A stretch of DNA of 32,640 bases from Candidatus Pacearchaeota archaeon (GCA_016866975.1 VGKP01000009.1:1-32640); one strand, 5' to 3'. Positions 4,628-23,884 are shown, counted from the stretch's first letter. The notes: generated by a model from the sequence alone, not told the origin. Translations and numbers: made by a program.

Positions 4628-4798
4628 TCAAGCAAGCCTCGGCTTAAAAGCCGAGGTTAAAACCCGAAGGGTTTTGTGATGTCGGGAACCGATGAAAACC
4701 ACACCTTTCAAGGTGTGGTGGTTCCCGAGCATCTCCAAAAACGAGCGCCTGCAACAAACTTCGGCTTTTAAGCCGAGGTGGCGCATCGTTTTTGTGAT
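4628..4798. repeat. Intergenic composite copy of the palindromic element: module C (4628-4680) plus a 118-nt A+B copy (4681-4798)
   Basis: CCTCGGCT-TAAA-AGCCGAGG; AAAACCC-GAA-GGGTTTT; TCGGGAACC...CCACACCT-TTCA-AGGTGTGG...GGTTCCCGA; AAAAACGAGCGCC...CTTCGGCT-TTTA-AGCCGAGG...GGCGCATCGTTTTT. Confidence 0.9.
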
Positions 4799-7842: not shown

Positions 7843-7988
7843 GCTCCTGTAGCTCAGCCTGGATAGAGCATCGGACTTCTACCTAAGAGAACCAAGGTTC
7901 CTTCGGGATAACCTCCTTCATTGGGGGCCCTTAAGGAAGCCAAGGGGAAGCAATCCGAGGGTCGTAGGTTCAAATCCTATCAGGAGCG
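7843..7988 (+). tRNA. trnR: tRNA-Arg(TCT) with 71-nt intron at 37/38 (7882-7952)
   Basis: Acceptor GCTCCTG/CAGGAGC+G; TCGGA-CTTCTA|A-TCCGA; BHB with central helix CTTC/GAAG and bulges TA|C and CA|A. Confidence 0.95.
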
Positions 7989-8246
7989 TAGGGATTTGAA
8001 AGTGCTCGCAGAGCTACGCTCCGCGGCAACCTTCACGAGGTATTCGCTCAGGTGTTCAAATCCTATCAGGAGCGTAGGGATTTGAAAGTGCTCGCAGAGC
8101 TACGCTCCGCGGCAACCTTCACGAGGTATTCGCTCAGGTGTTCAAATCCTATCAGGAGCGTAGGGATTTGAAAGTGCTCGCAGAGCTACGCTCCGCGGCA
8201 ACCTTCACGAGGTATTCGCTCAGGTGTTCAAATCCTATCAGGAGCG
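7968..8246 (+). repeat. Perfect 86-bp tandem array: four copies of the 21-nt tRNA 3' end separated by three identical 65-nt spacers
   Basis: GTTCAAATCCTATCAGGAGCG starts at 7968, 8054, 8140 and 8226. Confidence 0.95.
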
Positions 8247-19945: not shown

Positions 19946-20536
19946 TTGTTGCTTAAATTGTTTATGTCTCCTGAGACAAAAGAGGAAGAGATTAGAGAAG
20001 ACGAGCAAATCAAAAGAGAGCTCTTAGGAAAAAGCGAGATCAGCATTTTACTTAAAACATATGATGATATATTCTCAGATTTTGATCCCAGGCCATTTGT
20101 TCATCGTGCTCTTTCTGACGATTTCCTTCTCGAGGCCAAAAAGGCAACTTTTGGGAGAGAAGGAGCTTTCCAACTTCGCTTTCTTATTCCACGCCAAGCC
20201 AGGAAACCTGATCAAGAAGTTCTAATCAAGAAAAGACTGAGGGATCATTTCAGGAAACATTTTATATTATTAGAAAAAGAAGTTGCCAAGACTAAAAGGC
20301 GCGCATGGTATATGGCCTCTCTTGGAGCTTTCATGCTTGTTCTTGCCACTCTTGTCTCTATATATGGTGGAGAAGGCATATGGACCCATATTCTCCTTGT
20401 ATTACTTGAGCCTGCAGGATGGTTTACTGCATGGACAGGATTAGACCAGCTTTTTTATACGGTGGAAGAGAAGAAACCTGATTTAGATTTCTACAGGAAG
20501 ATGGCCAATGTAGAAATATTATTCATATCTTATTAA
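19946..20536 (+). CDS. Conserved hypothetical protein with two C-terminal TM helices
   Basis: YDDIFSDFDPRP...LSDDFL motif; EPAGWFTAWTGLD. Confidence 0.8.
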   Translation: MLLKLFMSPETKEEEIREDEQIKRELLGKSEISILLKTYDDIFSDFDPRPFVHRALSDDFLLEAKKATFGREGAFQLRFLIPRQARKPDQEVLIKKRLRDHFRKHFILLEKEVAKTKRRAWYMASLGAFMLVLATLVSIYGGEGIWTHILLVLLEPAGWFTAWTGLDQLFYTVEEKKPDLDFYRKMANVEILFISY

Positions 20537-21036
20537 TAAGTAATCAATTTTACATATTTGCAGAATTTCTTGAACTGAAGTTCGGCGACCATCTTTTTTA
20601 CAAGCGAAGCTTCTCCGTTTAGCATAAAAAGCTCGAGGCATTTGCTGTCCGGCTTGTGATTATGTAATTGAGTCCTAATCATCGACTGGTATCTGTGAGT
20701 TATTGATGCGATATTTTGAGTGTGGCGAGCGTCGTGCAAGACAAGCAATACGGCATCGATGTTACCCTTGAGAAGCCTTTTCTGTTTCTCTTCCGCAAAA
20801 ATGTGATGAAGCCCATTCCTTACAGCTTCGCTTCTTCCCTTAAATAATTTTGAGGCTATAGAAGAGTCCAGTTCTTCAAGAGTTTCTTTATGTCAAGGAA
20901 CTTGACTAAAACTCCAGCTTTTAAGCTGGAGTTGTTCCTTGAGCATCCAAAGCACGAGTGCCTGCAACAAACCACACTCTTCAGAGTGTGGTGGCACATC
21001 GTGCTTTTGATTTATTGAAATGCTCATAATTCTCAT
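20533..21036 (-). pseudogene. nikR: NikR-family ribbon-helix-helix metal-responsive regulator, interrupted in-frame by a 120-nt element after codon 9
   Basis: Removing 20892-21011 gives 127 aa MRIMSISINKETLEELD...FKGRSEAVR...THRYQ...QLHNH...KCLELF, with the RHH strand/helix and His, His-x-His, Cys ligands intact. Confidence 0.88.
20892..21011 (+). mobile_element. 120-nt bipartite nested-hairpin insertion element (A+B) inside nikR
   Basis: TCAAGGAAC...ACTCCAGCT-TTTA-AGCTGGAGT...GTTCCTTGA then AAAGCACGAGTGCC...ACCACACTC-TTCA-GAGTGTGGT...GGCACATCGTGCTTT; flank TTTAT| and end TTTTGAT. Confidence 0.85.
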
Positions 21037-21090
21037 TCTCTCGATATTATTAACAAAATCTTTAAATATTATTAACTTATATCTTAAGAA

Positions 21091-21840
21091 ATGAATGAAA
21101 TCTGGTTATACTCATTATTAAGCGTATTCGTTGTGAGTCTCATATCTTTCATTGGAGTTGTTACTTTGGGCATTAAGACTGAAAGACTGAAAAAAATACT
21201 TATCTATTTTATTAGCTTCTCTGCTGGAGCACTTATGGGGGATGTATTTCTTCATCTTCTTCCTGAATCTGTGGAAGAGAATGGTTTTGGGTTAAATATA
21301 TCAGGAACTGTACTATTGGGTATATTCGTCTCTTTCTTACTTGAGAAGGTCATTCACTGGAGACATTGCCACATGCCTCATGAGAAAGGACATGTCCATT
21401 CATTTGCATATATGAATCTCTTTGGAGATGGCTTACATAATTTTGTCGATGGAGCAGTTATTGCCGCGAGCTATATAGTAAGCATCCCAGTCGGTATTGC
21501 GACAACTCTTGCGGTCTTATTCCATGAAATACCTCAAGAAATAGGAGATTTTGGAGTTCTATTACATGGAGGTTTTTCAAAGGGCAGAGCATTGCTGTTG
21601 AATTTTGCTTCAGCTTTAATGGCTGTCCTTGGAGCAGTTATTGCCCTTTGGCTTAATAGCGTTGCAGAGTTGACTGTAGCATTCCTTGTGCCATTTGCCG
21701 CTGGCAGTTTTATATATATTGCTGGAAGCGACCTAATTCCAGAGCTACATAAAAATACCACGATGAAAACTTCTATTCTTCAAGCGCTTACGTTCTTGCT
21801 GGGGATACTGGTTATGGCTGTGCTTTTAATACTTGAATAA
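21091..21840 (+). CDS. ZIP (ZupT) family divalent metal transporter
   Basis: SFSAGALMGDVFLHLLPE, His loop HWRHCHMPHEKGHVH, DGLHNFVDG, HEIPQEIGDF, GSDLIPELH. Confidence 0.95.
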   Translation: MNEIWLYSLLSVFVVSLISFIGVVTLGIKTERLKKILIYFISFSAGALMGDVFLHLLPESVEENGFGLNISGTVLLGIFVSFLLEKVIHWRHCHMPHEKGHVHSFAYMNLFGDGLHNFVDGAVIAASYIVSIPVGIATTLAVLFHEIPQEIGDFGVLLHGGFSKGRALLLNFASALMAVLGAVIALWLNSVAELTVAFLVPFAAGSFIYIAGSDLIPELHKNTTMKTSILQALTFLLGILVMAVLLILE

Positions 21841-21978: not shown

Positions 21979-22075
21979 AAGCCACGTCTCATCAAGGATT
22001 TTCAATCCTTGACTGCCATCAAGAACTCGCGTCCTTAAGGTTTAAGCTGGGGTTAAAACCCGAAGGGTTTTGTGA
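21979..22075. repeat. Module D plus module C of the palindromic family, downstream of tRNA-Ala
   Basis: TCAAGGATT-TTC-AATCCTTGA; GGTTAAAACCCGAAGGGTTTTGTGA identical to 4655-4679. Confidence 0.8.
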
Positions 22076-22104: not shown

Positions 22105-22503
22105 TTAGAACTCATCAGCGATTTTTAGATTGTACTGCCCATAGACTTCACTGACTTTTTCATCCAATGCCAGGTATTCTTTTTCTTTGAGTGATTTTCG
22201 CGCAATTCTGAGATTCACGCGCTGATCCGCATTCCATTGCATGAGCGCTTTCCGTGCATCATCTGCTCTTTTGATGTCAAGGAACTTGACTAAAACTCCA
22301 GCTTTTAAGCTGGAGTTGTTCCTTGAGCATCCAAAAAACGAGCGCCTGCATCAAACTGCGGCTTTTAAGCCGCAGTGGCGCATCGTTTTTTTGATTTCCT
22401 TGAGATCGGGACCTTTAAGATTAAGACCATATTTATCTGCCAATGATTCTAAAGAAGCATGACCGTTCAGAGGCGCAGAATGTGAAGAGCACGAATGTCT
22501 CAT
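22105..22503 (-). pseudogene. 92-aa hypothetical protein interrupted in-frame by a 120-nt element (not in ORF track)
   Basis: Removing 22276-22395 gives MRHSCSSHSAPLNGHASLESLADKYGLNLKGPDLKEI-KRADDARKALMQWNADQRVNLRIARKSLKEKEYLALDEKVSEVYGQYNLKIADEF*. Confidence 0.7.
22276..22395 (+). mobile_element. 120-nt bipartite nested-hairpin insertion element (A+B)
   Basis: Module A identical to the 20892 copy; module B has compensatory changes (ACTGCGGCT-TTTA-AGCCGCAGT); TTTTGAT direct repeat at both boundaries. Confidence 0.85.
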
Positions 22504-23712: not shown

Positions 23713-23884
23713 TGGTGCTGGGGAGAATCGAACTCCCGATCTCGGCCTTTCGCAAATCTGCGATTCGCGAGATTTTGAGAATCTGAATCCAAGATTCTCG
23801 AGATTGCTCAAGAACCAAGGTTCTCGACAACTTCGCTAACGCAAGTTTATGAGAGCCGCGCCTTAACCACTCGGCTACAGCACC
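23713..23884 (-). tRNA. tRNA with CAT anticodon (elongator Met or Ile2) with 99-nt intron at 37/38 (23749-23847)
   Basis: Acceptor GGTGCTG/CAGCACC+A; CGGCT-CTCATA|A-GGCCG; T arm GGGAG-TTCGATT-CTCCC; 73-nt mature tRNA; relaxed BHB (CTCA/TGCG, one mismatch). Confidence 0.9.

Follow-up and report, generated by a model that had tools for sequence, protein, structure and literature searches.

Insertion sequences of the IS200/IS605 type and their ends-only derivatives, the PATEs, have neither terminal inverted repeats (TIRs) nor target duplications; they insert 3' of a defined tetra- or pentanucleotide and carry subterminal hairpins (PMC7290912, PMC5027513). The IS200/IS605 elements also show a strand bias, the top strand lying on the lagging-strand template, and their excision is scarless, such that the flanks are rejoined precisely (PMC5027513). 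The 120-nt element described here, which splits a nikR gene of a Candidatus Pacearchaeota archaeon, resembles the PATEs in most of these respects: it is short and encodes no gene, it has one hairpin per end and no TIR, its right flank is unconserved, it lies 3' of a fixed tetranucleotide with a bias in strand and it is presumed to be mobilized in trans. It differs from them in that no parent insertion sequence with the same ends was found, in that its family is modular and has hairpins of unusual length, nested such that an 8-nt bulge separates an outer from an inner stem, and in that it resides in a DPANN archaeon whose genome measures 0.8 Mb.

Other systems share single traits with the element. 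The bacterial REP/BIME repeats, together with their RAYT (TnpA-REP) enzymes, likewise comprise numerous mosaic hairpin modules and draw on the Y1 HUH enzyme class; the present element, however, interrupts around a dozen genes at TTAT, and the RAYT-flanked arrangement was not seen. REPs are extragenic and not known to interrupt coding sequence cleanly. Rickettsia palindromic elements (RPEs) are palindromic repeats of 100-150 bp that reside within protein genes, have a frame-preserving length, as does the present element, and are translated within the host protein, whereas here there are stops in the frame used in nikR and in most other hosts, and there is a 118-nt sister subfamily. Finally, the archaeal BHB introns of tRNA, rRNA and cbf5 mRNA are also short structured inserts in archaeal genes, and the present host has BHB-type introns in its tRNAs, but the junctions of the element are without a BHB, its orientation relative to the host gene is variable and the orthologous sites are without an insert.

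The interrupted nikR gene and its ZIP neighbour

The window, by which we mean the whole 32,640-nt stretch of DNA that was analysed, contains the features collected in Table 1. The nikR open reading frame lies on the minus strand (21036..20533) and is interrupted after codon 9: read in frame, MRIMSISIN is followed by 40 foreign codons and then by KETLEELD..., which continues up to a stop codon at 20533. The insert measures exactly 120 nt (20892-21011; GTC...TTGAT in plus-strand spelling), and the sole stop among its codons in the nikR frame is a TGA at inserted codon 39. Rechecking of the ORF and its coordinates thereby upheld the original prediction as regards the exact size of the insert, the two peptides on either side of it and a frame that is continuous apart from this one TGA. 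Both edges of the insert carry AT, and the resulting 2-nt ambiguity yields the alternative junction that had been proposed there. As encoded, 120 nt that include the TGA stand between the β-strand of the ribbon-helix-helix (RHH) domain (codons 1-9) and helix A, and a contiguous RHH domain appears only upon in-silico removal of the insert; the empty junction would then consist of ATTTCAATAA followed directly by ATAAAGAAACTC, and the full-length peptide across it would read SISINKETLEELD. Inspection of the sequence between the TGA and the RHH helices revealed no in-frame restart codon, and a scan of the locus for bacterial promoters and terminators gave nothing informative.

The identity of the gene is clear. 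Pfam NikR_C matches the downstream 119 aa (E 1.7e-10), and nikR is alone in the genome in encoding this domain. In a protein database search, the only close matches were the window's own truncated call and P0002, an uninterrupted protein of 127 aa that is 74% identical over the query and begins with MKIISISIDEETLKELD; residues 4-125 of P0002, with the RHH domain among them, align to the solved NikR structures 3pht, 2ca9, 2bj1 and 1q5v. Removal of 20892-21011 gives a NikR of 127 aa that aligns with P0002 without gaps (93/127 identical), the 5' piece pairing with the N-terminal MKIISISID of P0002, and the comparison revealed no further lesions in the 3' piece. The ligand pattern H...HxHx5C is kept in both proteins and aligns with that of Helicobacter pylori NikR (3pht). 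It had been claimed that removal restores the RHH spacing and all of the His/His/His/Cys ligands, and both parts of this claim are borne out by the gapless alignment and the intact ligand pattern.

P0002 is encoded on L048, a Logan contig of 2.4 kb whose layout is that of the nikR locus, with a divergent ZIP gene, the regulator and a convergent gene of 190 aa. A distant and intact relative, 47% identical, was found on a second contig (L060) in a metagenome scan that used the C-terminal part of NikR as query. Moreover, a divergent NikR-like gene accompanies 6 of 80 ZIP loci in DPANN and other genomes, and is a single uninterrupted match in 6/6. The comparison of orthologues that the original prediction had suggested therefore found nikR uninterrupted in P0002/L048, in L060 and at the six ZIP-linked loci. 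An empty nikR site from the same species was retrieved neither from the protein database nor by the metagenome scan, which gave only the 47%-identical relative. A search of 16 further species of the genus yielded no nikR, which is therefore probably dispensable.

The ZIP transporter that had been predicted to lie divergently beside nikR is supported by its Pfam match and by the same pairing in L048, and it is presumed to be the target of the NikR regulator. A 27-nt stretch between the two genes is shared with that contig and is a candidate for a common promoter or operator of nikR and ZIP. Additionally, the intergenic region has a direct repeat, ATATTATTAAC, in two copies 22 nt apart.

Table 1. 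Features of the nikR locus and related elements in the window
Feature	Position	Strand	Remarks
nikR 5' piece	21012..21036	-	ATG, first 8 codons and 1 nt (MRIMSISI-N); β-strand of the ribbon-helix-helix
nikR 3' piece	20533..20891	-	KETLEELD... to stop; RHH helices and NikR_C metal-binding domain
Two-hairpin non-autonomous element, type A1	20892..21011	+ (antisense to nikR)	120 nt, repeat family member
Hairpin 1	20893..20942	+	9-bp outer stem, 8-nt one-sided bulge, 10-bp inner stem, 4-nt loop
Hairpin 2	20949..21007	+	Architecture as hairpin 1; followed by T-run and terminal TGAT
TTAT target tetranucleotide	20888..20891	+	Directly 5' of the nikR element
nikR-ZIP intergenic 27-nt stretch	21047..21073	-	Identical in orthologous contig L048
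ZIP-family metal transporter	21091-21840	+	Pfam Zip E 9.6e-48; divergent, 54 nt from nikR
Second window copy, type A2	22276..22395	+	Splits small ORF 22503..22105 (-) at a codon boundary
Third window copy, 118-nt type B3	4681..4798	+	Intergenic

A family of two-hairpin elements

For the nikR element, the computed fold consists of two stable stem-loops whichever strand is used, with an energy near -65 kcal/mol and a z of about -9. Each hairpin of the family follows the same design, namely an outer stem, an 8-nt one-sided bulge, an inner stem of 9-10 bp and a tetraloop; the inner stems vary among the subfamilies by compensatory changes, and hairpin 2 occurs with three stem variants in which pairing is kept. 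Across 61 aligned copies, the left end reads (AT)GTCAAGGAAC or GTCGGGAACC and the right end CGTTTTT(G/T)TGAT; within this alignment the two ends are not mutual reverse complements and there are no TIRs, and a repeat finder reported no inverted pairs of at least 30 nt. A classical MITE (TIR and TSD, DDE transposase) was considered and rejected, given the lack of TIRs and the asymmetric conservation of the flanks.

Approximately 60 copies are dispersed through the MAG (0.806 Mb in 31 contigs) and make up ~1% of this 0.8-Mb genome, which its ZIP relatives assign to the DPANN archaea of the Pacearchaeota/Woesearchaeota type. There are 25 copies of 120 nt (type A) and 18 of 118 nt (type B, which has a different left half), the remainder being a few copies of 117-123 nt and composites of 169-221 nt with extra hairpin modules; the family is thus modular, with both extra modules and half-elements. 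Divergence within subfamilies is small (a mean of 1.4-1.8 differences), and the nikR copy itself has twins that are 100% and 99% identical (C8:15351-15470 and C8:20765-20884, respectively). The copies cluster, with 11 of them lying within 24 kb of one contig (C3:29-53 kb), and many of the contigs terminate in the element repeat. Of 16 sister species searched, 12 have members of the family, and there the positions are mostly intergenic.

Two observations touch on how the hairpins may be assembled. A 32-nt hairpin module (…GGTTAAAACCCGAAGGGTTTTGTGA) is present twice in the window, at 4648-4679 and 22044-22075; the former directly adjoins the type-B element at 4681 and, like the element, ends in TGAT, such that modules seem to insert side by side. 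In one sister species (G013; loci L089-L091, L096 and L098) there is a form of ~95 nt in which hairpin 1 is a simple palindrome without the inner stem and bulge, suggesting that the long hairpins arose via nested insertion of one hairpin into another.

Around a dozen further real genes carry an equally clean insertion, among them those for an HMUDK-type kinase, a HAD hydrolase, an EamA transporter, a NUDIX protein, a DDE transposase and a MutS-like ATPase; the HAD copy, too, is regarded as an ordinary knockout. The Pfam match of the kinase continues over the insertion junction, and the sister-species orthologues of both the EamA and HMUDK genes are contiguous exactly where the element joins its host; for the DDE transposase gene, which was struck by a twin copy, the genome contains no uninterrupted paralogue. 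Relative to the element, the host genes occur in both orientations and in several phases, and for most in-gene copies the host frame holds four element stops. The second copy in the window falls at a codon position different from that in nikR, and also places one TGA in the frame of its host. The phases in which the copies fall deviate no more than marginally from the phases of TTAT in coding sequence (8/11, p 0.02). Selection for translatability finds no support on these grounds: the in-gene copies are mostly in stop-bearing frames and the phase departure is marginal. Taken together, the clean hits in other genes, the contiguous orthologues and the intergenic positions of sister copies argue for recent, species-specific hits on dispensable genes. 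The two subfamilies differ in their placement: 11 of 24 type-A copies (120 nt) are in genes versus 0 of 17 type-B copies (118 nt; p 0.0009), despite the fact that both types are alike in homogeneity and target. Neither a simple picture of random hits followed by purging nor translatability explains this excess, which might stem from a newer burst of type A, from a slight preference for certain targets or from a concentration of copies in dispensable islands.

The flanks and the orientation of the copies indicate how the element moves. Genome-wide, TTAT stands upstream of the left end in 44 of 66 copies and TNAT in 54 of 66, whereas the downstream flank shows neither conservation nor a repeat of the upstream TTAT. 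The left flank and the element both end in AT, and the sequence fits equally with or without a 2-bp AT target duplication. Copies that are neighbours on the same contig agree in orientation above chance (14 switches in 46 pairs), the element top strand is the locally G-rich strand in 55/69 copies (Fisher p 1.5e-6) and the majority orientation matches the sign of the contig GC skew in 19/22 contigs (p 4e-4). If the usual bacterial skew convention applies, the top strand would favour the lagging-strand template, the direction of replication being taken from the skew only. From the ends, the target and this strand bias, we infer movement of the IS200/IS605 type, or PATE-like movement, and a transposase of the corresponding class.

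Candidates for a helper were also sought. One Y1 transposase gene of the genome is intact and has the HUH and Tyr motifs (C10:194-541), and a second type of Y1_Tnp lies at the ends of two contigs (C6 and C12). When four types of the element were compared by BLAST with 14 loci of Y1 transposases, 11 of them in sister genomes, no significant similarity to the flanks of these loci emerged, and the IS200-type element at contig edges is probably not the helper; Y1_Tnp had no match in the element-rich sister genomes G005 and G008, and TnpB was not found in the genome. The right-end hairpin loop of the insertion sequence resembles the element only loosely. In the IS200-type element itself (C10:1-620 in this genome, G000; L055 and L057 in sister genome G009), the hairpin at the left end, GTGAGC…GCTCAC, shows compensatory changes from one species to another, and that at the right end has a loop of TTTA or TTTCAA, after which comes GGATGTCAT or GGACGTCAC; the element also bears an ATGTCA motif that recalls the left terminus of the mini-element.

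Probable inactivation of nikR and competing explanations

We consider that nikR was recently inactivated through insertion of a non-autonomous mobile DNA element, and put the probability of this reading at roughly three in four (0.76). Of the options raised in the original prediction, that of a recent inactivating insertion is the one that is favoured, as the insert is a copy from a mobile family with near-identical twins, and the nikR orthologues are intact, as are the sister-species counterparts of other interrupted genes. The interruption would, as such, be an ordinary insertion event, and a new kind of intron is not supported. In the proposed mechanism, a Y1 HUH transposase would act in trans, through the single-strand 'peel and paste' transposition of the IS200/IS605 type, and would insert the element in one orientation, 3' of TTAT, between the DNA-reading β-strand (SISIN) and helix A (KETLEELD). 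The nikR mRNA would then give rise to a 47-aa peptide that ends at the element TGA. Since no restart codon recovers the DNA-binding strand, the function of the NikR regulator appears to be lost, and its loss would probably leave the divergent ZIP transporter derepressed.

A reversible switch, in which a Y1 transposase supplied in trans would excise the element without a scar from the lagging-strand template, and often enough to toggle nikR and ZIP within the population, seems unlikely, even though several observations would accord with it and precise DNA excision, the first option of the original prediction, is plausible as a mechanism. The element bears the hallmarks of IS200/IS605, whose excision rejoins the flanks precisely (PMC5027513); its identical copies speak for present mobility, one Y1 transposase gene of the genome is intact and nikR has no second lesion. 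Set against this, the empty-site DNA of the same species was not retrieved, the metagenome scan giving only the 47%-identical relative; cognate ends were not found at any of the 14 Y1 loci; and a gene that is not found in 16 sister species is probably dispensable. Moreover, many unrelated accessory genes were struck, which resembles random damage and gives no sign of a dedicated switch. A broader version of this idea, that a still-mobile element leaves nikR and some 12 accessory genes as reversible off/on alleles, with ZIP uptake as but one output, strikes us as a little more doubtful again.

An assembly artefact, with the repeat misplaced in nikR, or a minority variant present in part of the population, is very unlikely. 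The division of the MAG into 31 contigs, many of which end in the element repeat, would be in keeping with such an error, but a read pair of typical length would exceed the insert, the target is a perfect TTAT with unique flanks on both sides, removal restores the nikR frame exactly and a dozen further copies show the same pattern.

Removal at the RNA level, whether by a new kind of archaeal intron or by translational bypass, would allow full-length NikR to be made. The organism has tRNAs with introns and therefore a splicing endonuclease, the interrupted genes are intact apart from the insert and the 120-nt copies are in excess over the 118-nt copies within genes; the remaining evidence nevertheless renders this explanation highly improbable. 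A scripted scan for BHB motifs, in which the two junctions should sit in 3-nt bulges 4 bp apart, covered both junction geometries in nikR and in the second interrupted ORF and gave at best 7/10 pairs with 1-3 of 4 in the central helix, as against 7-9 for random offsets in the same RNA; the original prediction that no canonical BHB could be built across the junctions thus holds, the scores there being no better than those at random offsets. The minimum-energy fold consists of two independent hairpins, the exon flanks have only a one-sided TTAT in common and the region matches no Rfam intron or ribozyme family, the hits in 20800-21100 being sub-threshold chance matches with E up to 10. In addition, host genes are found on both strands relative to the element and in differing phases, the sister-species orthologues are without the insert and the element there lies mostly between genes, and the orientation bias tracks the strand asymmetry of the chromosome, a property at the level of DNA. 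The non-BHB splicing route that had been put forward as a second option is accordingly disfavoured by the two host orientations, the unrelated flanks and the lack of an Rfam family.

The least probable reading, an RPE-type insert whose 40 codons are translated with read-through of the TGA to give a NikR with a 40-aa loop, can draw on a length that is a multiple of three, on the single stop in the nikR frame and on one open plus-strand frame that is used by a few predicted proteins, but TGA serves this genome as a regular stop, nikR uses a frame other than the open one, most in-gene copies face four stops and the loop would part the DNA-reading strand from helix A in the RHH fold. TGA as a sense codon was likewise rejected, since standard stops give a coding density of 85% and 233/716 long ORFs end in TGA, which makes it a true stop. 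Furthermore, the existence of a 118-nt subfamily implies that the length of the element is not tuned to the reading frame, 120 nt being the type-A length. The open plus-strand frame runs from a flanking ATG (MSRNLTKTPAFK...) at C19:4465-4584 and C8:20765-20884, and in the predicted proteins P0003-P0007 (up to 1539 aa); such read-through means that a few copies may be translated inserts or sources of start codons.

Consequences and tRNA genes in the window

With inactivation by insertion as the preferred reading, the two short ORFs at 20533-21036 are to be annotated as one nikR gene plus an insert, and gene calling in this lineage would best be preceded by masking of the elements of 120 nt and 118 nt. 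The nikR locus adds an orthologue-verified clean insertion to the IS200/IS605-like family of ends-only elements, which has hardly been described in Pacearchaeota/Woesearchaeota-type archaea. In terms of physiology, it suggests a strain without control of its ZIP metal importer; the insertion could be polymorphic within the population. Were the alleles reversible after all, they would amount to transposon-based phase variation, and, if excision does occur, the interrupted but otherwise intact genes would provide a natural system for reversible inactivation in an uncultured, genome-reduced archaeon.

The window also contains tRNA genes with introns. One of these, on the minus strand at 23713-23884 (CAT anticodon region), has an intron of ~100 nt and was found by Rfam and missed by ARAGORN; the intron is made up of three short palindromic modules (such as TCGAGAACCTTGGTTCTTGA) that resemble the extra modules of the composite elements. 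Another, on the plus strand at 7843-7988, has a 3' end, GGTTCAAATCCTATCAGGAGCG, that recurs three more times with a period of 86 nt, extending to 8246; the array as a whole (7843-8246) looks like a stack of duplicated tRNA 3' ends, for instance scars of integration or copies of an att site.
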